Sequence record: OP917825
Length of the DNA stretch: 38,876 bases
Reading direction: 5' to 3' (one strand)
DNA from: Shigella phage CT02
Shown here: positions 1 to 38,876 of the stretch, piece after piece
How the letters are laid out: each line of letters begins with the position of its first letter
Position numbering within the stretch: position 1 is the first letter of the stretch
Program-made: the position numbers and the translations under genes
Notes under the pieces: generated by a model
What the model saw: the letters and a program-made list of their open reading frames with translations, nothing else
The model's database searches: none
Told to the model about the DNA's origin: nothing

Positions 1-429
1 GCAGCAACCTTCTTCTTGACTATGTGGGGTGGAATTCAGTGCTGGAAAACAGGATATGACGGTCAAAATCAAAACTTCGAGTTCACAAGGAACCCCGTGT
101 CCGATATCCGCCTCAAGAACATCACAGGTAAGGTAGACGGGGCAAAATGTCTCAATAGCATTGAGAGCATGAACTTCGTTGAGTTCACCTTTAAGCGCGA
201 TGCTAACAAGAAGGTTCGCCGTGGTGTTATTGCACAGGAAGTACAGAAGATTGACCCACAATACACTAGCCTGTCTGTCATGGAGGCCACCAACGAGACC
301 CCTCGTATGGAGACCTTACAGTTAGACCTCACGCCCATGACTCTGGATGCCCTAGCAGCAATCAAAGAGTTGTCGAGTCAGGTCAAGGAACTAAAGGCTG
401 AACTTAAACAACTCAAGGAAGCTAAATAA
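1..429 (+). CDS. Tail fiber (gp17-like), C-terminal fragment; reading frame is open at window start. Contains an intramolecular-chaperone / peptidase S74-type self-cleaving domain from about nt 100
   Basis: Frame 1 is open from nt 1 to the stop at 427-429. Motif NPVSDIRLKNI (S74-type Ser-Lys cleavage motif) followed by a strongly helical C-terminus (ALAAIKELSSQVKELKAELKQLKEAK). Sits immediately upstream of holin gene 17.5, as gene 17 does in T7-like genomes. Confidence 0.7.
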   Translation, partial: AATFFLTMWGGIQCWKTGYDGQNQNFEFTRNPVSDIRLKNITGKVDGAKCLNSIESMNFVEFTFKRDANKKVRRGVIAQEVQKIDPQYTSLSVMEATNETPRMETLQLDLTPMTLDALAAIKELSSQVKELKAELKQLKEAK

Positions 430-469: not shown

Positions 470-673
470 ATGTTGTCATTGGACTTTAATAATGAGTTAG
501 TCAAGGCCGCGCCGATTGTTGGTACGGGGGTAGCTGATGGTGCCGCCCGCCTATTCTTCGGGTTGAGTCTTAATGAGTGGTTCTACGTTGCAGCTATCGC
601 CTACACAGTGGTTCAGATTGGTGCCAAGGTAGTCGATAAGATGATTGACTGGAAACGTGCAAATAAGGAGTAA
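470..673 (+). CDS. Class II holin (gp17.5)
   Basis: 67-aa ORF with RBS AAGGAGG upstream; near-identical from memory to T7 gp17.5 (MLSLDFNNEL...); hydrophobic core. Confidence 0.85.
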   Translation: MLSLDFNNELVKAAPIVGTGVADGAARLFFGLSLNEWFYVAAIAYTVVQIGAKVVDKMIDWKRANKE

Positions 674-676
674 CCT

Positions 677-943
677 ATGAGTGACAAGACTTTAATCAAG
701 CTGCTGGAGATGCTAGACACTGAGATGGCACAGCGTATGCTTGCTGACCTCCAGAGTGAGGAACGCCGAACGCCGCAGCTTTACAACGCAATCGGCAAAC
801 TGTTAGACCGCCATAAGTTCCAAATCAGTAAGCTGACCCCGGATGAGAACATCCTCGGTGGACTGGCGGCTGGTCTGGAAGACTACAACAAAGTGGTCGG
901 CCCTAATGGTCTGACTGACGATGAGACCATCACGCTACAGTAA
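677..943 (+). CDS. Terminase small subunit (gp18)
   Basis: 88-aa ORF; strong recalled similarity to T7 gp18 (MSDKTLIKLLEMLDTEMAQRML...); RBS AAGGAG. Confidence 0.85.
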   Translation: MSDKTLIKLLEMLDTEMAQRMLADLQSEERRTPQLYNAIGKLLDRHKFQISKLTPDENILGGLAAGLEDYNKVVGPNGLTDDETITLQ

Positions 944-949
944 GTGACA

Positions 950-988
950 TACTCAAGGTTCTCCACGCGGGGAGCCTTTATGGATGTT
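950..988 (+). promoter_or_regulatory. RNase III-type processing hairpin (R18.5-like)
   Basis: Member of a 6-copy family with conserved flanks ACTCAAGG...CCTTTATGRAT around an imperfect GC-rich stem. Confidence 0.4.
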
Positions 989-1029
989 ATTTGGTGCATC
1001 TATGTGAAATCTGAAAATTGATGGGAGGT

Positions 1030-1485
1030 GTTATGCTAAAACTTTTACGCAGCGCACTCCCTTGGGTACTCGCCGGGACACTCTTTATGGGTGGCTGGCA
1101 CTTAGGGTCAACCCATGAGAGAGCGAACTGGAAGGAGGTAATCCAAAATGAATACATTGCGAAAACAAAAGCAACCGCAGCAACTCAGGCAGAGGTCAGT
1201 CGGGTATCCCGTGAGTACCAAGAAGAGATTGCAGCCATTGAAGGCAGCACTGATAGGATGCTTAATGACCTGCGTAGTAATAATAAGCGGCTGTCAGTCC
1301 GCATCAAAACCCTTACCGGACTACCAGAAGATAACGGTAGATTCGAGTTTAATGGTCGAGCCGAACTACACGAGTCAGATGCTAAGCGTATTATCGGAAT
1401 AACCCAAGCTGCTGATGCTCACGTAAGAGCGCTCCAGCGTACTATTAAGGAGATGCAGAATGAGCGACACCCAAGCAAACCGTAA
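1030..1485 (+). CDS. i-spanin, Rz-like (gp18.5)
   Basis: ORF 1018..1485; preferred start ATG 1030 directly after RBS GGAGGTG (1021-1027); N-terminal TM segment; resembles T7 gp18.5. Confidence 0.75.
1148..1402 (+). CDS. o-spanin, Rz1-like lipoprotein (gp18.7), embedded in gene 18.5 in the +1 frame
   Basis: 84-aa ORF fully inside 18.5; lipobox-like IISGC; RBS AAGGAGG upstream; resembles T7 gp18.7. Confidence 0.7.
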   Translation: MNTLRKQKQPQQLRQRSVGYPVSTKKRLQPLKAALIGCLMTCVVIISGCQSASKPLPDYQKITVDSSLMVEPNYTSQMLSVLSE

Positions 1486-3223
1486 TGCGCTAATCATTGC
1501 GCAGCTTAAGGGTGACTTCGTGGCCTTCCTGTTTGTATTGTGGAAGGCTTTGGCTCTCCCGCCGCCGACTAAGTGTCAGATTGATATGGCCCGGTGTCTG
1601 GCTAACGGAGACAACAAGAAGTTTATCCTACAGGCTTTCCGTGGTATCGGTAAGTCATTCATCACCTGTGCGTTCGTTGTGTGGACGTTATGGCGTGACC
1701 CTCAGTTGAAGATACTGATCGTCTCTGCATCCAAAGAACGTGCGGACGCTAACTCCATCTTCATCAAGAACATCATTGACCTGCTGCCCTTCTTGGCTGA
1801 GCTAAAGCCTCGCCCCGGTCAGCGCGACTCTGTGATTAGTTTCGATGTTGGCCCTGCCAAGCCTGACCACTCTCCGTCTGTGAAGTCGGTGGGTATCACT
1901 GGTCAGTTGACTGGTAGCCGTGCTGATATCATCATAGCGGATGACGTTGAGATTCCGTCTAACTCCGCAACTCAAGGTGCCCGTGAGAAGCTGTGGACTC
2001 TGGTGCAGGAATTTGCTGCGCTTCTGAAACCACTGCCGACTTCTCGCGTTATCTACCTTGGCACGCCTCAAACCGAAATGACCTTGTACAAGGAACTCGA
2101 AGATAACCGTGGGTACACCACAATCATCTGGCCTGCGCTCTATCCACGTAGCCGTGAGGAAGACTTGTACTATGGCGACCGTCTGGCCCCGATGCTCCGC
2201 GAAGAGTTCAACGATGGGTTCGAGATGCTCCAAGGTCAACCGACTGACCCCGTGCGCTTCGATATGGAAGACCTGCGTGAGCGTGAGTTGGAATACGGTA
2301 AGGCTGGCTTCACTTTGCAGTTCATGCTAAACCCGAACCTGAGTGATGCCGAGAAGTACCCCTTACGCCTCCGTGACGCTATCGTGTGCGGTCTGGACTT
2401 CGAGAAAGCCCCAATGCATTACCAGTGGCTTCCGAACCGTCAGAATCGCAATGAAGAGCTTCCTAACGTGGGACTTAAGGGTGATGATATTCATAGCTAT
2501 CATTCGTGCAGCCAGAACACTGGACAGTACCAGCAACGCATCCTCGTGATTGACCCTAGTGGTCGAGGTAAGGATGAGACTGGTTACGCAGTGTTGTTCA
2601 CCCTGAATGGCTACATCTATCTGATGGAAGCTGGCGGGTTCCGCGATGGTTATTCCGATAAGACCCTTGAGTCCCTCGCTAAGAAAGCGAAGCAGTGGAA
2701 GGTTCAGACAGTGGTCTTCGAGAGTAACTTCGGGGATGGTATGTTTGGTAAGGTATTCAGCCCTGTGCTCCTGAAACACCATGCAGCGCAACTTGAAGAG
2801 ATTCGTGCTCGTGGTATGAAGGAACTACGCATTTGTGATACGCTGGAGCCTGTACTCTCTACGCACCGCCTTGTGATTCGTGACGAGGTGATTCGTGAGG
2901 ACTACCAGACTGCCCGTGACGCTGATGGCAAGCATGACGTTCGCTATTCACTGTTCTACCAGTTGACCCGTATGGCTCGTGAGAAGGGCGCTGTGGCCCA
3001 TGACGACCGACTTGATGCATTAGCATTGGGTGTAGAGTTCTTACGCTCTACGATGGAACTGGACGCCGTGAAGGTGGAAGCTGAGGTGCTTGAGGCGTTC
3101 TTAGAGGAACACATGGAGCACCCAATCCATTCGGCTGGTCATGTAGTTACCTCTATGGTTGACGGTATGGAACTCTATTGGGAGGATGACGATGTGAATA
3201 GCAACAGGTTCATTGACTGGTAG
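1460..3223 (+). CDS. Terminase large subunit (gp19)
   Basis: 587-aa ORF; length and sequence consistent with T7/T3 gp19; RBS AAGGAG. Confidence 0.9.
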
Positions 3224-3303
3224 TTATGCATATTGAGTGCATAAGGAATCATTGAGACCACGGATGGTCACTTTAAGAAACTCCTTAAGAATCAATGAGT
3301 TTG

Positions 3304-3326
3304 CATTAACCCTCACTAAAGGGAGA
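3304..3326 (+). promoter_or_regulatory. T3-class phage RNAP promoter (phiOR position)
   Basis: CATTAACCCTCACTAAAGGGAGA matches the T3 promoter consensus; lies between genes 19 and 19.5. Confidence 0.7.
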
Positions 3327-3467
3327 GAGGGGACTTAAAGCTACTATATAGGTTAGTCATTCAGATTATGCAATGACCCTTTATGCACTTTAAGTCTACC
3401 TCTATGATTGGTGATATTATCATTGTATAATCACCCTACCTTAGAGCAACTGAAAGGAGGTGGCTCA

Positions 3468-3617
3468 ATGTTACGCTTGCTGATTGCCCTGCTGCGTCAT
3501 AGAGTCACTTGGCGATTTCTTCTGGTACTTACTGCTACCCTTGGGTACGCAGGTCTTACTGACCACCTCGGTCAACTGGAAGTGGCCTTTTGCTCTATAC
3601 TCTCTTGTGGGGATTAA
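3468..3617 (+). CDS. gp19.5-like small protein
   Basis: Internal ATG of ORF 3408..3617 preceded by RBS GGAGG; product MLRLLIALLRHRVTWRFL... resembles T7 gp19.5 (49 aa). Confidence 0.6.
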   Translation: MLRLLIALLRHRVTWRFLLVLTATLGYAGLTDHLGQLEVAFCSILSCGD

Positions 3618-3874
3618 ATTATTGTTGATGACCGACAAGCGGCTCTGAGGGATTCGTAGGTATAGTTTCACTACACCAACTCATCCCTGTAGAGTCAACC
3701 CTAAAGGTTATACCTAAAGATGCCCTGTAGTTCGTAATGGTCTTACAGGGTCTTCTGGTGTCTCCTAGATATCCCTTCGGGATGCGCCTGTGGTCTCACC
3801 TATGGTGTGGCCTTACCTAAAGTGGTTGCCTAAAGAGACCCTTTAAGAATTTACCACAAAAATCTGAATGGGTA

Positions 3875-4105
3875 TCTCACAGTTCAAGAACCCAAAGTAC
3901 CCCCATAGCCCTCCTAAAGCCACCTAAAGCCAGCCCTACCCCTCTGGTTTAACCTTCGGTTAACCTTGGGTATCTCCTCAAGTGGCCTATAGGATAGCCT
4001 AGAGTGTTGCCTAAAGTCAATACCTAAAGAGGTGGATGGCTTAAAGAGGCCTTAAAGAGTGTCCTAGTGTACCAGTTCGATAGTACATCTCTATGTGTCC
4101 CTATC
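3875..4105 (+). other. Inferred genome left end and terminal repeat (concatemer junction); exact repeat length not determinable from a single copy
   Basis: TCTCACAGTTCAAGAACCCAAAGTACCCCCATAG at 3875 resembles the T7/T3 genome left-end sequence; followed by CCTAAAG repeats and the phiOL promoter, as at the T7 left end. Confidence 0.4.
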
Positions 4106-4116
4106 TGTTAGTCATT

Positions 4117-4199
4117 CCTAAAGTAAACCTAAAGCCACTACCTAAAGACCAGACCTAAAGCCACCACCTAAAGACCAGACCTAAAGCCACCACCTAAAG
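4117..4199 (+). repeat. CCTAAAG heptamer array including a perfect 26-bp tandem duplication (4141..4166 and 4167..4192)
   Basis: Direct reading: CCTAAAGACCAGACCTAAAGCCACCA occurs twice in tandem; further CCTAAAG copies at 3700-3720, 3826-3845, 3905-3930, 4005-4060. Confidence 0.8.
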
Positions 4200-4287
4200 A
4201 GTGGAGCTATCTTAAAGACAACCAGACCGATAGACCCACTGTTAACCTGTAGTCTGTCCTGTAGTTTCCTATAACATCCAACGTTGT

Positions 4288-4310
4288 CTATTACCCTCAC
4301 TAAAGGGAAT
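4288..4310 (+). promoter_or_regulatory. T3-class phage RNAP promoter (phiOL position)
   Basis: TATTACCCTCACTAAAGGGAAT, a one-base-shorter variant of the consensus, upstream of the early region. Confidence 0.55.
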
Positions 4311-4363
4311 GAGGGATACTTAAAGAGGGAATAAAAGATTTAATAAAAGATTTAAATTAATGG

Positions 4364-4393
4364 TTGACTTTGAGTAACCCTTAAGGCTATTAT
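4364..4393 (+). promoter_or_regulatory. Sigma70 early promoter (A1-like)
   Basis: -35 TTGACT (4364-4369), 18-bp spacer, -10 TATTAT (4388-4393); position matches T7 A1. Confidence 0.55.
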
Positions 4394-4492
4394 TCATCTC
4401 GTCAACGGGACAACGGCCTTAAAGCCACTCCCTGAGATACCGGAGTCAACCGGATAAGTAGACAGCCTGATAAGTCATACGAAAAACAGGCA

Positions 4493-4522
4493 TTGACAAC
4501 ATGAAGTAACATGCAGTAAGAT
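4493..4522 (+). promoter_or_regulatory. Sigma70 early promoter (A2-like)
   Basis: -35 TTGACA, 18-bp spacer ACATGAAGTAACATGCAG, -10 TAAGAT; near-identical to recalled T7 A2. Confidence 0.7.
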
Positions 4523-4600
4523 GCACAGCGTCAACCGGACGGATACGGTGTCTTCTAGGTGACTTAAGCGCACCACGGCACATAAAGCGAGACAAAATGG

Positions 4601-4629
4601 TTGACAACATGAAGTAAGCACGGTACGAT
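4601..4629 (+). promoter_or_regulatory. Sigma70 early promoter (A3-like)
   Basis: -35 TTGACA, 17-bp spacer, -10 TACGAT; near-identical to recalled T7 A3. Confidence 0.7.
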
Positions 4630-4841
4630 GTGCCACATGAAAGACACCGAGTGTCGTAGGTGTAAAAACGCGACATAGTGGATAGATGGCGAAAGCACAA
4701 GCGACCACGATAATAAAGAGCTTGTCGCACTTATAACGCAAGTGACGGCTAACACTGAAATAGCCTCGGCTCGACGAAACTGTAGCCTAAAGTTCTTTAA
4801 CAATCTGGATAATAGCTCTTGAGTGTACCGTATAAGCGAAT

Positions 4842-4877
4842 AACTCAAGGTCGCACTGAAAGCGTGGCCTTTATGAT
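4842..4877 (+). promoter_or_regulatory. RNase III-type processing hairpin (R0.3-like)
   Basis: AACTCAAGGTCGCACTGAAAGCGTGGCCTTTATGAT; conserved flank family, upstream of gene 0.3. Confidence 0.55.
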
Positions 4878-4913
4878 ATTCACTTAACACGAACTAACAT
4901 GAGGTAATACCAA

Positions 4914-5372
4914 ATGATTTTCACTAAAGAGCCTGTCAACGTCTTCTATGTACTGGTGTCAGCATTCCGTTCTAACCTTGATGATGAGGTGAACATGAGC
5001 CGCCACCGCCACATGGTGAGCGAATTACGTGCCGCACCGGGTATCTACGGCGAGCTTGAGTCTACCGATTTGACCGGGTGCTATCGTGAGAGTATCGCAC
5101 TGGCTCCAACCGAGGAAAAGACCATGCGTGTACTCTGCAAGAACAAAGAGCAGGCACTACAGGTAGCTCGCTTAGCTTGCAATGAGTATGAGCAAGATTG
5201 CGTACTGGTATACAAATCACAGACTCACACAGCGGGATTGGTGTACGCTAAAGGTATCGACGGGTATAAGGCTGAACGTCTGCCGGGTAGCTTCCAAGAG
5301 GTTCCCAAAAGCGCACCGCTTCAAGGCTGCTTCACGATTGATGAGTTCGGACGCCGCTGGCAGGTGGCCTAA
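4914..5372 (+). CDS. S-adenosylmethionine-degrading enzyme (T3 gp0.3-type SAMase), anti-restriction
   Basis: 152-aa ORF; sequence and length match recalled T3 gp0.3; RBS GAGGT; first gene after the early promoters. Confidence 0.85.
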   Translation: MIFTKEPVNVFYVLVSAFRSNLDDEVNMSRHRHMVSELRAAPGIYGELESTDLTGCYRESIALAPTEEKTMRVLCKNKEQALQVARLACNEYEQDCVLVYKSQTHTAGLVYAKGIDGYKAERLPGSFQEVPKSAPLQGCFTIDEFGRRWQVA

Positions 5373-13680: not shown

Positions 13681-14379
13681 ATGGCTGGTTTCAAGAAGAA
13701 AATCTACACCTCTGGTCTTGGTACTGCTGAGCCTTATGCTTACCTGAGTAAGCCGGATTACGGCAACGAAGAGCGTGGCTTCGGCAACCCTCGTGGTATC
13801 TATAAGGTAGACCTGACTCTTTCCAATAAAGACCCGCGCTGTCAGGCAATGGTCGATGAAATCGTGAAGACTCACGAAGAGGCTTATGCTGCTGCCGTGG
13901 AAGAGTTCGAAGCTAACCCGCCTCAGGCACAGCGTGGTAAGAAACCGCTGAAACCTTACGAGGGCGACATGCCGTTCTTCGATAACGGTGACGGTACGAC
14001 TACCTTCAAGTTCAAATGCTATGCGTCTTTCCAAGACAAGAAGACCAAAGAGACCAAACACATTAATCTGGTCGTTGTCGATAGCAAGGGCAAGAAGATT
14101 CAGGACGTTCCGATTATCGGCGGCGGCTCTAAGCTGAAAGTGAAATACTCTCTGGTGCCTTACAAGTGGAACACCGCTGTGGGCGCAAGCGTCAAGCTGC
14201 AACTGGAGTCCGTGATGCTGGTCGAACTGGCTACCTTCGGTGGTGGTGGTGACGATGAGTGGGCCGATGAAGTCGAAGATGGTGGTTACACTGCGAGTGA
14301 ATCCCGTCAGTCCCGCGATGAGCAGGAGTGGCAGGAAGACGAGCACGAAGAAACCCCGGATGATGACGAGGATTTTTAA
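13681..14379 (+). CDS. Single-stranded DNA-binding protein (gp2.5)
   Basis: 232-aa ORF, same length as T7 gp2.5; acidic C-terminal tail ending DDDEDF; RBS AAGGAGA. Confidence 0.9.
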   Translation: MAGFKKKIYTSGLGTAEPYAYLSKPDYGNEERGFGNPRGIYKVDLTLSNKDPRCQAMVDEIVKTHEEAYAAAVEEFEANPPQAQRGKKPLKPYEGDMPFFDNGDGTTTFKFKCYASFQDKKTKETKHINLVVVDSKGKKIQDVPIIGGGSKLKVKYSLVPYKWNTAVGASVKLQLESVMLVELATFGGGGDDEWADEVEDGGYTASESRQSRDEQEWQEDEHEETPDDDEDF

Positions 14380-14856
14380 ATGGAACTTAAAGAGAAACTA
14401 AAGGCTTACAGCGAAGTTTCTCATAACGGGTGCTGGGAGTGGCAACGCTACCGGATGCCCTGTGGTTACGGTAGGATTAGACACGGAGGCCGCATGGAAC
14501 TAACGCATCGTCTATCCTACCTAGCATTCAACGGGGATATACCTGAGGGTCTTGTTGTTCGCCATAAGTGTGACAACAAATGCTGCGTTAACCCTGAGCA
14601 CCTTACGCTAGGTACTCAAAAGGACAACGTTAAGGATGCAATAGACCGTGGTCAATTCGTCTACAGGGAGAACCCGAAAGGTGCAAAGCACCACATGGCT
14701 AAACTTAATGAGAAACAGGTTATGGAGGTTTACAACTCGACACAGACCCAAAGCAGCCTAGCAGAGACCTATGGTGTATCTCGACAATTAATCAGCGCGA
14801 TTAAGAGAGGTAAACTATGGCAGCACGTTACGCAGCACGTGGAGTTAAACGAGTAG
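14380..14856 (+). CDS. HNH endonuclease (homing-endonuclease-like), 158 aa; paralog of 10916..11332
   Basis: Motif HKCDNKCCVNPEHLTLGTQKDN; shares the YG.R..G....HR..Y and CDN..CVNPEHLT.GTQ.DN blocks with the first HNH ORF. Confidence 0.75.
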   Translation: MELKEKLKAYSEVSHNGCWEWQRYRMPCGYGRIRHGGRMELTHRLSYLAFNGDIPEGLVVRHKCDNKCCVNPEHLTLGTQKDNVKDAIDRGQFVYRENPKGAKHHMAKLNEKQVMEVYNSTQTQSSLAETYGVSRQLISAIKRGKLWQHVTQHVELNE

Positions 14857-15272
14857 GATCATATAGAAGCGGCTTAGAGCAGAAGAACATGGAGATGCTG
14901 GAACGTAAGGGAATCAAGGGACAGTATGAGATGTGGTCTATTCCCTATGTTATCCCTGCATCGAACCACAAGTACACACCAGACATAATCCTACCCAACG
15001 GAATCATTATTGAGACCAAGGGTCTATGGGACAGTGAAGACCGTAAGAAACACTTACTGATTCGTGAGCAGATGCCTGAGTTGGATATTCGTTTGGTATT
15101 CTCTTCGAGCCGCTCTAAGTTATACAAAGGGTCTCCAACCAGTTACGGTGAGTGGGCCGAAAAGCATGGTATTCTATTTGCTGACAAGCTGATTCCTGTG
15201 GAGTGGCTTAAAGAACCTAAGAAGGAGATACCGTGGGATAAACTAATTGCAAAGAAAGGAGTTAAGAAATAA
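14817..15272 (+). CDS. Endonuclease I, Holliday-junction resolvase (gene 3)
   Basis: 151-aa ORF; VPYVIPASNH.YTPD...ETKGLW...DRKKHLLIREQ.PELDIR.VFSSSR.KLYKGSPTSYGE matches recalled T7 gp3; RBS AGAGAGG. Confidence 0.9.
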   Translation: MAARYAARGVKRVGSYRSGLEQKNMEMLERKGIKGQYEMWSIPYVIPASNHKYTPDIILPNGIIIETKGLWDSEDRKKHLLIREQMPELDIRLVFSSSRSKLYKGSPTSYGEWAEKHGILFADKLIPVEWLKEPKKEIPWDKLIAKKGVKK

Positions 15273-15727
15273 TGGCCAAGGTACAATTCAAAACGCGCGC
15301 TTCTACGGAAGCAATCTTTGTTCACTGTAGTGCAACCAAGCCAAGCCAGAACATTGGCGTTCGTGAGATTCGTCAGTGGCACAAAGAGCAGGGCTGGTTA
15401 GACGTAGGATATCACTTCATCATCAAGCGTGATGGCACTGTGGAAGCAGGCCGCGATGAACTGGCTGTAGGTTCTCACGTGAAAGGTTACAACCACAACT
15501 CCGTAGGCGTATGCCTCGTGGGTGGGATTGATGATAAAGGCAAGTTCGACGCCAACTTTACACCTGCGCAAATGCAAGCGCTACGTAGTCTGCTGGTCAC
15601 GCTGCTGGCGAAGTATGAGGGTTCAGTCCTTCGTGCTCACCATGACGTTGCACCCAAAGCCTGCCCGTCCTTCGACTTGAAGCGCTGGTGGGAGAAGAAC
15701 GAACTGGTTACATCTGACCGAGGGTGA
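15272..15727 (+). CDS. Lysozyme / N-acetylmuramoyl-L-alanine amidase (gene 3.5)
   Basis: 151-aa ORF; strong similarity to recalled T7 lysozyme (MA.VQFK.R.STEAIFVHCSAT...). Confidence 0.9.
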   Translation: MAKVQFKTRASTEAIFVHCSATKPSQNIGVREIRQWHKEQGWLDVGYHFIIKRDGTVEAGRDELAVGSHVKGYNHNSVGVCLVGGIDDKGKFDANFTPAQMQALRSLLVTLLAKYEGSVLRAHHDVAPKACPSFDLKRWWEKNELVTSDRG

Positions 15728-36400: not shown

Positions 36401-37401
36401 TGCTCCTGAACGGAACATCAAACTACATTCTTGATGCTGCCCGTCAGGGTGTGCTTGGGGATGTGGCTGGAGCGGCCCTTGCTGGGAAAGCCTCTAAGTT
36501 CGGTAAGGCAAACTACCTTAAGTCTGCCTCTATCAGCCCTGAGCAGTGGAATGGAATCAAGCAGTTGTTCAGAGACCATGCGACTCGTGGAGAAGACGGT
36601 AAGTTCACCATTCGTGACAAACAGGCTTTCGCTAACGACCCACGTTCAATGGACTTGTGGCGACTGGCTGACAAGGTGGCGGATGAGACTATACTGCGCC
36701 CTCACAAGGTTTCCTCACAGGACGCCAAAGCGTTCGGTGCAGGGGTTAAGATGGTGATGCAGTTTAAGAACTTCGTCATCAAGTCCCTTAACTCCCGGTT
36801 CGTCCGTAGCTTCTATGAGGCAACGAAGAACAACCGTGCGTTAGACCAAGCGTTGACTCATATCATCTCTTTGGGTCTAGCTGGTGGTTACTACGTTGGG
36901 CAGGCGCACCTTAAGGCTGCAAGTCTACAGGAGCACAAACGTAAGGAGTACCTTAAGAACGCGCTTGACCCTAAGATGATTGCTCATGCGTCAATCTCTC
37001 GTAGTTCACACTTAGGATCACCATTGAGTATCTACGACATGTTCGCTGGGATGGTTGGTAGCGATACCTATAAGTACACCCGCTCTACTGTACTCCCTAA
37101 AGAGTCCGAGAAGCGCGACCCTAACAAGGCAGTGACAGGTAGACAGGTGGCTTCAACCATCGCAGGTGCAATTGGTGAGCAGGTTCCGGGTTTAGGTTTT
37201 GTGGGTTCTGTGGGCGCAACAGCAATTAACGCCGCTTCCCTACTGTCTTCTCCAAACAAGGCTACCGCTCTGGAGTTCCGTACAGGACTCTTCAACACCT
37301 CTCGTGAGTTGATTCCTAATGACCCGCTATCGCAGCAACTCATTATGAAAATCTACGAGGCCAACGGTATCCGTATAAAGGAGACGCCTAAGAAACAATA
37401 A
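33439..37401 (+). CDS. Internal virion protein gp16 with N-terminal lytic transglycosylase domain
   Basis: 1320-aa ORF; N-terminal SLT-like motif (LMQFTKGTA..., AYNQGEG); RBS AAGGAGG. Confidence 0.9.
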   Translation: MSYDKNKPSEFDGLFQKAADKHGVSYDLLRKLAFNESSFNPKAKSPTGPKGLMQFTKGTATALGLKVTDADDDDRYNPELAVDAAARHLSDLIRKYDGDELKAALAYNQGEGRNGAPQMQAYDKGDWASISEEGRNYMRNLMDVANSPRKGDLEAFGGITPKAKGIPSGDAFAGIGKKQTVGTDLPESTGFKVEGKEQKAPNVPYAKDFWEKTGTTLDEFNSRSAFFGIGDATSAELHNSVLGVAFRAARSDDGFDLFKDTITPTRWNSHTWTPEELERIRKEVKNPAYIHVVTGGSPENLDALIKMANDNYEMDARSADAGVGAKLTAGIVGAGVDPLSYVPLVGVAGKGLKVVNKAFIVGTQSAGLAVASEGIRTSIAGGEAHYADAALGGLMFGAGMSAISDAIAAGVRRSRGTEVVNDFAPMAHRLEARETAMNSGGEDLTRMPSENRVFDREHAGVEYSPLETEPGAVVLPQGQILSDTNPLNPQTLSEFEAVNPERAARGISLSGFTEIGLKTLRSENPTVRSIASDLVRSPTGMESGSNGKFGATASDIKERLHANNQRTYNQLYDAVRTAMKDPEFSTGGATMSRKEIRQEIYKRAALAIERPELQANLTKGERNVMNILKQHFDLKREIMENPSIFGNTKAVSIFPGSRHKGTYVPNVYDRAIKIEMVKRYGNDGLQRAIAESWLTSYRARPEVKARVDEYLMELNGLKSVQEVTPEMVQKHAMDKAYGISHTDQFSASSVIDDKLEGLTGIENNNFLEARNMFDSDMAVTLPDGNTFSVNDLRTYDMADILPAYDRRVDGDVAIMGGSGKTTKDLKDEIMALDKQAEGNGTLKGEVEALKDTVKILTGRARRNPEGAWGIALRSVNDLTFFAKNAYMGAQNLTEIAGMLAKGNVSAITHGIPVINDWVNRGKPLRASEIKEIHGMVFGKELDQLIRPGREDHVRRLRESTDTSAAVANVVGTIRFGTQELAARSPWTMLLNGTSNYILDAARQGVLGDVAGAALAGKASKFGKANYLKSASISPEQWNGIKQLFRDHATRGEDGKFTIRDKQAFANDPRSMDLWRLADKVADETILRPHKVSSQDAKAFGAGVKMVMQFKNFVIKSLNSRFVRSFYEATKNNRALDQALTHIISLGLAGGYYVGQAHLKAASLQEHKRKEYLKNALDPKMIAHASISRSSHLGSPLSIYDMFAGMVGSDTYKYTRSTVLPKESEKRDPNKAVTGRQVASTIAGAIGEQVPGLGFVGSVGATAINAASLLSSPNKATALEFRTGLFNTSRELIPNDPLSQQLIMKIYEANGIRIKETPKKQ

Positions 37402-37462: not shown

Positions 37463-38876
37463 AGGAGGTCACATGGCTACAACTATTAAGACCGTGATGA
37501 CTTACCCGCTGGATGGCTCCACTACGGACTTCAATATTCCGTTTGAGTATCTGGCTCGTAAGTTCGTCCGAGTGACACTTATCGGCGTTGACCGAAAGGA
37601 ACTCACCTTGAATCAAGACTATCGTTTTGCAACTAAGACCACAATCTCCACAACGAGAGCACTGGGGCCAGCGGACGGTTATAACATGATTGAAATCCGT
37701 CGATTCACCTCCGCTACCGATAGGCTGGTTGACTTCACCGATGGTTCAATCCTACGAGCATACGACTTGAACATCTCACAGGTGCAGACGCTACACGTTG
37801 CAGAAGAGGCTCGTGACTTAACGGCTGATACCATTGGTGTGAACAACGATGGCAACCTTGATGCTCGTGGTCGTCGTATCATAAACGTAGCTGATGGTGT
37901 TGACCTCGGTGATGTTATCACTTTAGGTCAAGTCACTCGGTGGAACGAATCGGCACTGACCTCAAAGAACGCCGCAAAAGTCTCTGAGACCAACGCAAGG
38001 GCTTCCGAGAACAATGCGAAAACCTCTGAGACCAACGCAAAGAACTCTGAGAACCTAGCGCACGATTGGGCTCAGAAGGCCGAGGACGCTCCGGTGGCTG
38101 GATCTGAGTATTCCGCTTATCATTATTCCCGTAAGGCATCAACTAGTTCTACTGCGGCTGCTTCGAGTGCTGCTGCAAGTCTGGCCTCTCAGAACGCTGC
38201 GAAGGTCTCCGAGGATAAAGCCAAGGTCTCAGAGCAAAACGCTAAGGCTTCTGAGGTTTCCGCTAAGGCTGATGCTGAGCGAGCAGAACGTGAGGCTGAT
38301 AAGCTGGGTAACATGAACAACCTAGCAGCAAACATTGAGAGCGCGTCCGTTGACCCAAACGTTGTAATCTTCAAGGGTCGAGTGGTGTCTCGTGGTGATA
38401 TAATGGCTGCGACAAACCTACGCGGAGAACCCGCTGGTGGTACATGGTGGGGTACTCAAAGCCTAGTGTCTGTCGTGGAGGTTAACGGTAGGAAGCGTAT
38501 GCAGACACAACTGTATGCTGAGGGAACCGCTGGTGTAGATGACCGTAAGACTACGATAGCGTCCTATGAGTATGATTCCAATGAGAGAATTACTCGCTCA
38601 TCATATGTACACCTAATGCACAACACCTCTCGATGGTGGTCTAGGCAACACGGTGCTCTCGGTTATCAGACTGGATGGGACGACCCTACAAATAGCCGAC
38701 AGGCTCCCTATTGGGTAGACGATGTGGTAAATAATAACGATGGATGGGTTCCTGCGCTGTCTGTTCACTCAAGCTCAACTGGAGGATACCCTATCAGGGC
38801 TACTCAGGGTATCATTTCGCGTGGCCCTAACACTTGGCCAGACTTTGGTGTTCGCTTGTGTGGCGATAGGGGTAAG
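37463..38876 (+). CDS. Tail fiber (gene 17), N-terminal part; runs off the window end
   Basis: ATG 37463 after RBS AAGGAGG; first ~150 aa resemble the recalled T3/T7 gp17 tail-attachment domain (NIPFEYLARKFV.VTLIGVDRK...RLVDFTDGSILRAYDLN); no stop before the window end. Confidence 0.9.
37965..38290 (+). repeat. Imperfect tandem repeats encoding the coiled-coil heptad shaft of the fiber
   Basis: TCTGAGACCAACGCAA at 37983 and 38025 (42-bp spacing); encoded repeats AKVSETNARASENNAKTSETNAKNSEN and AKVSEDKAKVSEQNAKASEVSAKA. Confidence 0.6.

Follow-up and report, generated by a model that had tools for sequence, protein, structure and literature searches.

Embedded spanin genes of Shigella phage CT02 and the private loss of the single i-spanin cysteine

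Two overlapping genes of Shigella phage CT02 (record OP917825), at 1033..1485 and 1148..1402, are very probably the genes for an embedded two-component spanin in a T3/phiYeO3-12-like phage, orthologous to T7 18.5 and 18.7; judging from sequence, we put the probability of this reading at about 0.95. All positions are those of the window, the whole analysed stretch of 38,876 nucleotides. The function of the pair in CT02 rests on homology, and the pair itself is known biology, a known kind of feature in an already sequenced phage; we agree on this point with the preliminary description of the locus. Kongari et al. (2018, PMC6139136) name lambda and T7 as the embedded +1-frame spanin systems that have been tested by experiment. 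What is particular to CT02 is one private base, which removes the cysteine of the putative inner-membrane subunit. The features discussed below are collected in Table 1.

Table 1. Positions of the putative spanin genes, their signals, their neighbours and the endolysin gene in the window
Feature	Position	Strand	Basis and remarks
Class II holin, gene 17.5 homologue	470..673	+	Pfam Phage_holin_2_2 E=1.9e-35; PHROG 920
Small terminase	677..943		
Hairpin 5' of spanin genes	938..996	+	-27.1 kcal/mol, z=-4.8, 0/200 shuffles as stable
i-spanin Shine-Dalgarno GGGAGGT	1023..1029	+	Read in sequence; serves ATG 1033
i-spanin gene, T7 gp18.5 homologue	1033..1485	+	150 aa; ORF list, PHROG 1327, alignment
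Predicted i-spanin N-terminal membrane anchor, residues 7-25	1051..1107	+	19 uncharged residues after K3, R6
Internal Shine-Dalgarno AAGGAGGT for o-spanin	1132..1139	+	8 nt 5' of ATG 1148
o-spanin gene, T7 gp18.7 homologue	1148..1402	+	84 aa; Pfam, PHROG, alignment
Lipobox I-S-G-C, o-spanin residues 46-49	1283..1294	+	PROSITE-type pattern match, residues 39-49
i-spanin codon 104 TTC (Phe)	1342..1344	+	TGC (Cys) in phiYeO3-12-type relatives, their only cysteine
Large terminase, gene 19	1460..3223	+	ORF list
Overlap of i-spanin 3' end and gene 19 start	1460..1485	+	26 nt; ORF list
Endolysin, gene 3.5 homologue, N-acetylmuramoyl-L-alanine amidase	15272..15727	+	Pfam Amidase_2 E=1.1e-16

Identity of the two genes and of their products

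The outer (i-spanin) gene ends with the TAA at 1483-1485. The inner (o-spanin) gene runs from ATG 1148 to the TAA at 1400-1402 and thus lies wholly within it, in the +1 frame ((1148-1033) mod 3 = 1). This nested arrangement had been proposed in the preliminary description, and it is borne out by the open reading frames, by a separate Shine-Dalgarno sequence for the inner gene and by conservation. The same description placed the locus at 1030-1485. Its end holds, whereas its start is 3 nt off: position 1030 reads GTT, which is no start codon, and comparison with T7, T3 and phiYeO3-12 places the start of the i-spanin gene at the conserved ATG 1033.

Profile searches and direct alignments agree with the earlier assignment of the pair to the T7 18.5/18.7 type. 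The i-spanin matched PHROG 1327 (Rz-like spanin) over residues 1-146 (E=3.3e-61), and it is 55% identical to T7 gp18.5 and 98% identical to phiYeO3-12 gp18.5. Its score with the Pfam Phage_lysis model (Rz, PF03245) was 22.4 bits (E=1.5e-4), under the gathering cut-off of 25.4; the protein therefore falls outside strict lambda Rz Pfam membership and within the T7-type family. The o-spanin matched PHROG 4306 (Rz-like spanin) over its full length (E=1e-39) and the Pfam model O_Spanin_T7 (PF17531; cut-off 25 bits) with 76.1 bits (E=2.1e-21). The latter alignment takes in profile positions 1-58 of 59 and, on the protein, residues 25-83 only. Identity of the o-spanin is 51% to T7 gp18.7 and 96% to phiYeO3-12 gp18.7, and a tblastn search with it returned matches in 1154 phage records. 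No NCBIfam model matched either protein, and a PDB sequence search with the i-spanin gave no meaningful solved relative (best match E=0.045, unrelated).

The N-terminal anchor predicted for the i-spanin is only moderately hydrophobic, its Kyte-Doolittle 19-mer maximum of 1.28 staying under the usual 1.6; within it, PWVLAG..LF..GWHLG is invariant in comparison with T7, T3 and phiYeO3-12. An AF2 model computed from the single sequence (mean pLDDT 60) placed helices at residues 5-18, 27-48, 52-95 and 114-145, with residues 96-113 as a disordered linker, the first helix having a pLDDT below 50. We used this low-confidence model for the layout of secondary structure only. The predicted layout is compatible with the periplasmic helix-linker-helix of lambda Rz, although it is no proof of it.

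In the o-spanin, Cys49 is the predicted site of lipidation and of signal peptidase II cleavage, which would leave a mature lipoprotein of 36 residues. It is preceded by an n-region of 32 residues, nine of them basic and none acidic, and by an h-region of 16 uncharged residues, where the Kyte-Doolittle maximum over 11-mers reaches 2.86. In Lol sorting of E. coli, Asp at position +2 after the lipidated cysteine is the signal for retention in the inner membrane. The residues at +2 and +3 of the o-spanin are Gln-Ser, and since Gln rather than Asp follows the cysteine, sorting to the outer membrane is predicted. Cys49 falls outside the PROSITE rule that the cysteine be located at positions 15-35; this is due to the long n-region, a property common to T7 gp18.7, which has the same long basic n-region and a lipobox cysteine near residue 49. 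Two checks had been proposed in the preliminary description, prediction of a signal peptidase II site and alignment to T7 gp18.7. The first, carried out by pattern and inspection, yielded the ISGC lipobox with the basic n-region, uncharged h-region and Gln at +2 just described, and the second showed ISGC to be invariant in a four-way alignment of the o-spanins of CT02, T7, T3 and phiYeO3-12. As stand-alone evidence the lipobox pattern was rejected: in its bare PROSITE-style form it also occurs in eight other six-frame open reading frames of at least 60 residues across the whole genome window. Because the pattern is this unspecific, we put the weight on homology and on the invariance of ISGC. 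Another candidate lipobox, LIGC at residues 35-38, was also rejected (five uncharged residues before Cys38, which is Leu in T7 and T3).

Of the known systems, phiYeO3-12 and further members of Teetrevirus, among them LL2 and Pantoea phage F1M1C, come closest: they share with CT02 the lengths of both proteins (150 and 84 residues), the 115-nt offset between their starts, both Shine-Dalgarno sequences, ISGC, the R18.5 hairpin and the 26 nt by which gene 19 is overlapped. The phiYeO3-12 record annotates 18.7 as 'lambda Rz1 homologue', and in phage LL2 an i-spanin, an o-spanin and RBS features have been curated at the offsets seen in CT02. T7 and T3 have the same embedded +1 architecture, 115-nt offset and gene neighbourhood. 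Invariant segments shared with them are the PWVLAG..GWHLG anchor, EGSTDR, DLRS.NKRL and RAEL..DAKRI in the i-spanin, and ALIG..C..ISGC and VD.SLM.EPN in the o-spanin. The CT02 i-spanin extends seven residues beyond the C-terminus of its T7 counterpart; its gene runs into gene 19, where T7 leaves 21 nt between the two. The signal peptide of lambda Rz1 is short and conventional, with the lipobox cysteine at position 20, and the mature part is proline-rich. Lambda Rz/Rz1 follows the same logic as the CT02 pair, with a lipoprotein gene embedded in the +1 frame of a gene for a type II inner-membrane protein, and both Rz and Rz1 are needed for the final step of lysis (PMC6139136). The sequence similarity between lambda Rz and the CT02 i-spanin is marginal, as the match below the cut-off of the Rz model indicates.

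Loss of the single cysteine

A G→T change at base 1343, private to CT02, is read in both frames. It substitutes Phe for Cys at i-spanin residue 104 (C104F) and, being the first position of o-spanin codon 66, Ser for the Ala of phiYeO3-12-type relatives (A66S). This one base accounts for both differences from the phiYeO3-12 type; the CT02 o-spanin further differs from that of phiYeO3-12 in having K54 for R54 and Y20 for C20. The CT02 i-spanin contains no cysteine, and the mature o-spanin has none besides the lipidated Cys49, so that the pair as a whole is without a periplasmic cysteine. T7 and T3 likewise carry Phe and Ser in these two alignment columns.

Without exception, the 22 other distinct i-spanin gene sequences taken from the fetched loci encode a periplasmic cysteine. 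These comprise 15 sequences from T7-, T3- and phiYeO3-12-like contigs and seven from further phages (Teseptimavirus, Przondovirus, Minipunavirus, Kayfunavirus, Ghunavirus, Pifdecavirus and an unclassified Pantoea phage), and the comparison spans eight genera and one unclassified Autographiviridae phage. In the 90% identity cluster, 14 further members were found to have the cysteine too, and codon 104 is TGC in one metagenome contig. Wherever the full protein could be read, the other i-spanins have exactly one cysteine. In the linker, the T7/T3 clade has it in column 102, the phiYeO3-12 clade in column 104; phage Maksa, with a cysteine at residue 34, is an exception to the linker position.

Searches for the CT02 variant in other data sets gave a consistent picture. 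The 61 nt around base 1343 had an exact match in none of 81 related phage records, and the T variant was absent from IMG/VR and from JGI metagenome contigs, where the G variant was present in five contigs and in one, respectively. In a collection of 15 billion proteins, the exact i-spanin protein occurs on one contig only, as WAO25440.1, 'endopeptidase Rz [Shigella phage CT02]'. In 1631 aligned columns, CT02 has 13 private bases, two of which (1125 and 1343) lie in the spanin gene. Base 1125 is the third position of i-spanin codon 31, 5' of the inner gene, and its change is apparently synonymous. This pattern looks like ordinary divergence rather than poor sequence quality, a consensus error being still possible.

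At least one periplasmic cysteine is present in 507 of 528 two-component spanin pairs (approximately 96%), and intermolecular disulfides have been proposed as a universal spanin feature (Kongari et al., PMC6139136). Lambda has three such disulfides (at Rz C99, Rz C152 and Rz1 C29), T7-type pairs have one cysteine and CT02 has none; the lambda spanin needs at least one intermolecular disulfide (PMC6139136). With no periplasmic cysteine in CT02, one in every relative checked and one in about 96% of pairs overall, the CT02 allele may be impaired. The pair would then be a spanin pair by descent whose allele has been weakened or killed by C104F and tolerated, since spanins are dispensable for plaques in the laboratory. 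We regard this as a serious alternative, albeit an unlikely one. C104F takes away the one cysteine that could form the proposed covalent homodimer link; the change of column between the two clades suggests selection for a linker cysteine itself and not for a fixed position; and the rarity of the CT02 variant in the records and collections searched points the same way. T7 stays viable when 18.5 and 18.7 are deleted or disrupted (PMC9825161), so a viable phage is no proof of a working spanin. On the other hand, approximately 4% of spanin pairs are without a periplasmic cysteine, none of these having been experimentally tested, and lambda Rz C99, which has a comparable mid-protein position, is reported to be dispensable (PMC6139136). 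Both CT02 products are also family-typical except for the lost cysteine, Phe and Ser being what T7 and T3 have in these columns, and the lipobox, like both open reading frames and both Shine-Dalgarno sequences, is intact. Our literature search for experiments on the cysteines of T7 gp18.5, and hence on whether T7-type spanins need one, found none.

Translation starts and dual coding

Whether the two genes begin elsewhere than at ATG 1033 and ATG 1148 bears on the length of the i-spanin and on the signal sequence of the o-spanin. The longest mechanical i-spanin reading frame opens at TTG 1018, and an in-frame ATG is also found at 1021; proteins of 154-155 residues would result, and a 154-residue i-spanin is indeed called in some records, for example that of Klebsiella phage VSG32. 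These upstream codons are limited to the phiYeO3-12-like clade and lack a Shine-Dalgarno sequence, and upstream of the conserved start no in-frame ATG exists in the T7/T3 clade. In contrast, ATG 1033 and its upstream GGGAGG are conserved in all sequences, GGGAGG (or AGGAGG) standing ahead of the equivalent ATG in 17 of the 17 distinct relatives listed. For the o-spanin, an internal start such as GTG 1211 (codon 22) would place the lipobox cysteine at position 28, with a conventional 28-residue signal peptide, and would fit both the unusual distance of Cys49 from the N-terminus and the confinement of the PF17531 match to the later part of the protein. GTG 1211, however, lacks a Shine-Dalgarno sequence at proper spacing, GAGG occurring no nearer than 15 nt upstream, and is not conserved, and the Met18 of the T7 type is Val (GTC) in the CT02 type. 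By comparison, AGGAGGT precedes the inner ATG in both the T7/T3 and phiYeO3-12 clades, at an offset of 115 nt between the two gene starts (112 in one sequence). In CT02 the internal Shine-Dalgarno sequence AAGGAGGT is encoded within the i-spanin codons for W-K-E-V, and the i-spanin amino acids encoded at the internal AGGAGGT-ATG differ between the two clades. We therefore consider other boundaries for either gene quite improbable. Starts at 1018, 1021 and 1030 for the i-spanin and at 1157, 1211, 1229, 1238 and 1265 for the o-spanin were rejected, as each is without a Shine-Dalgarno sequence or not conserved.

An open +1 frame of this length is rarely produced by the coding content of the outer gene itself. 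A +1-frame ATG reading frame of at least 84 codons was found in 0.20% of 5000 synonymous recodings of the i-spanin gene, drawn on the codon usage of the CT02 window, and in 0.36% of 5000 codon shuffles; the mean longest +1 frame was 16 and 25 codons, respectively. Among the 22 other distinct gene sequences, all have an open embedded +1 frame with a lipobox-type motif, which is ISGC, SAGC or MYGC in the seven further phages. The SLMV.PN motif of the o-spanin is kept in the 15 T7-, T3- and phiYeO3-12-like sequences as well as in these seven.

Nucleotide diversity was compared inside and outside the overlap using 16 distinct sequences (CT02, T7, T3, phiYeO3-12, LL2, F1M1C and IMG/VR contigs). At the third position of the i-spanin frame it is 0.345 outside the overlap and 0.211 inside (Mann-Whitney p=0.0002, for alignment columns that are not independent, because the 16 sequences form two clades), whereas positions 1 and 2 show no significant difference. 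Since the wobble position of the i-spanin is the second codon position of the o-spanin, reduced third-position diversity is what is expected in the overlap. On this evidence from sequence variation, both overlapping frames are under purifying selection. That the inner frame is open by chance, or is an untranslated relic, and that the phage relies on the outer gene alone, might be suggested by the many GenBank records that annotate the outer gene only and by the eight spurious frames that share the bare lipobox pattern, but it is exceedingly improbable given the rarity of such a frame in randomised genes (0.2-0.4%), the strong Pfam and PHROG matches, the conserved Shine-Dalgarno sequence and ATG, a frame kept open with ISGC or a near variant and SLMV.PN across eight genera and an unclassified phage, the suppressed wobble variation, and the citation of T7 as an experimentally tested embedded system (PMC6139136).

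Lysis context, annotation and significance

The order of genes around the pair (holin, small terminase, hairpin, spanin pair, large terminase) is identical to that in T7 and T3. The hairpin is the homologue of the RNase III site R18.5, annotated as a stem_loop feature in phiYeO3-12 and T3, and the overlap between the i-spanin gene and gene 19 is likewise annotated in phiYeO3-12, LL2 and F1M1C. The genome contains 15 T3-type promoters, all on the + strand, which mark it as T3-like; the phage is a Teetrevirus. Its record is a permuted genome, and the nearest promoter upstream of the spanin genes is located at 37401, across the record break.

Sequence signals suggest that one late mRNA region would yield both spanins, each through its own Shine-Dalgarno sequence and ATG. 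By analogy with T7 and lambda, the product of the outer gene would be an inner-membrane protein of type II whose periplasmic domain would be largely helical (helix, linker, helix). The inner gene would give a prolipoprotein; after lipidation at Cys49 and cleavage by signal peptidase II, Lol would carry it to the outer membrane. Both proteins would bind each other through their C-termini and build a complex that reaches across the periplasm. On the same analogy, the holin (470..673) would first open the inner membrane and the amidase endolysin (15272..15727) would next degrade the peptidoglycan mesh; the spanin complexes, thereby freed, would disrupt the outer membrane, probably through fusion with the inner membrane, and complete lysis. 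The pair thus represents the textbook last step of Gram-negative lysis, and the mechanism gains nothing new from it.

The main value of the result lies in annotation, the o-spanin gene being real yet mostly unlisted. The preliminary description had remarked that automated callers usually miss the inner gene, and our counts agree: two features are listed at the spanin locus in about 6 of 28 annotated records from a spread sample of the wider family, and the inner gene is listed in 12 of 30 close relatives, as judged from a query lying in both genes. The CT02 source record evidently annotates the outer gene only, as do most of the related records checked. The exact o-spanin sequence was absent from the 15-billion-protein collection, and a literature search for Shigella phage CT02 found nothing. 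Since deletion or recoding of 18.5 also alters 18.7, genomes of phages intended for therapy or engineering should list the inner gene.

The private loss of the cysteine is the only point of research value, and it offers a cheap and well-controlled test of the need for a disulfide-linked dimer. If it is real and the pair still brings about normal lysis, the cysteine-free CT02 pair would be a natural counter-example to a universal need for covalent homodimers, a proposition that we put forward tentatively and with the odds somewhat against it. Should it be true, the CT02 allele would stand one mutation away from a cysteine-containing allele, and an F104C revertant would serve as its isogenic control.

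The spanin pair and its representation in databases

A private G→T at base 1343 (codon 1342-1344) produces C104F in the i-spanin, the product of the outer gene, and at the same time replaces Ala66 by Ser in the o-spanin encoded within it. Cys104 had been the sole cysteine of the i-spanin, and the CT02 spanin pair is now without a periplasmic cysteine, unlike every relative checked, each of which retains one. The T variant was absent from all other public sequences searched.

NCBIfam release 20 contains no model matching either T7-type spanin (1033-1485 and 1148-1402), a gap that may help to explain why annotations so frequently omit the inner gene. An i-spanin near-identical to that of CT02 is present in RefSeq under Staphylococcus epidermidis (WP_227954163.1, on a 38.6-kb contig). 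This entry almost certainly reflects contamination of a Gram-positive assembly by the genome of a T3-like coliphage.

Transcription, probable RNA processing and T3-like gene content

The interval from the small terminase gene to the i-spanin gene contains a very stable hairpin that is homologous to R18.5, the annotated RNase III site of T3 and phiYeO3-12; processing of the spanin and terminase mRNA at this hairpin is therefore probable. Searching for AACCCTCACTAAAGGGAGA with three or fewer mismatches identified fifteen T3-RNA-polymerase-type promoters in the window, all of them on the plus strand, against a chance expectation of 0.02. The presence of an S-adenosylmethionine lyase of the T3 gene 0.3 type, an anti-restriction protein, confirms that the early region of CT02 is T3-like, not T7-like. 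An HNH_3 endonuclease ORF, located between a presumed gene 2.5 homologue and the endonuclease I gene, the start of which it overlaps, is probably a homing endonuclease insertion.

Features identified in the CT02 window, with the supporting values
Feature	Position	Strand	Support
Hairpin homologous to R18.5	938-996		-27.1 kcal/mol, z=-4.8
T3-type promoters	3308, 4292, 10038, 10380, 10891, 12398, 13630, 15842, 17659, 22131, 24663, 25698, 27054, 30116, 37401	+	
S-adenosylmethionine lyase	4914-5372		E=8e-41
Presumed gene 2.5 homologue, 232-aa ORF	13681..14379		size and position only
HNH_3 endonuclease ORF, 158 aa	14380-14856		E=4e-15
Endonuclease I	14817..15272		
Peptidase_S74 intramolecular-chaperone domain, tail-fibre C-terminal end	1-455 (ORF 16..429)		E=7e-13

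Genome ends and the tail-fibre C-terminus

All 38,876 bp of the CT02 genome are contained in the window, which is written in a permuted order so that 38876 and 1 are adjacent in the phage but separated by the record break. The tail-fibre gene, which starts near 37474, appears to run past the window end at 38876, and its C-terminal part seems to resume across the record break, in 1..429. The interval 3300-4900, which separates gene 19.5 from the gene 0.3 region, is where the real termini of the genome are to be expected.

The segment encoding the Peptidase_S74 end of the tail fibre has no counterpart in the DNA matches of most close relatives, which start only at about 435-457; Pantoea phage F1M1C is the only close relative with a match reaching beyond this boundary. 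Because this end is not common to most close relatives, the sequence comparison suggests that the C-terminal stretch of the tail fibre is an exchanged host-range module.
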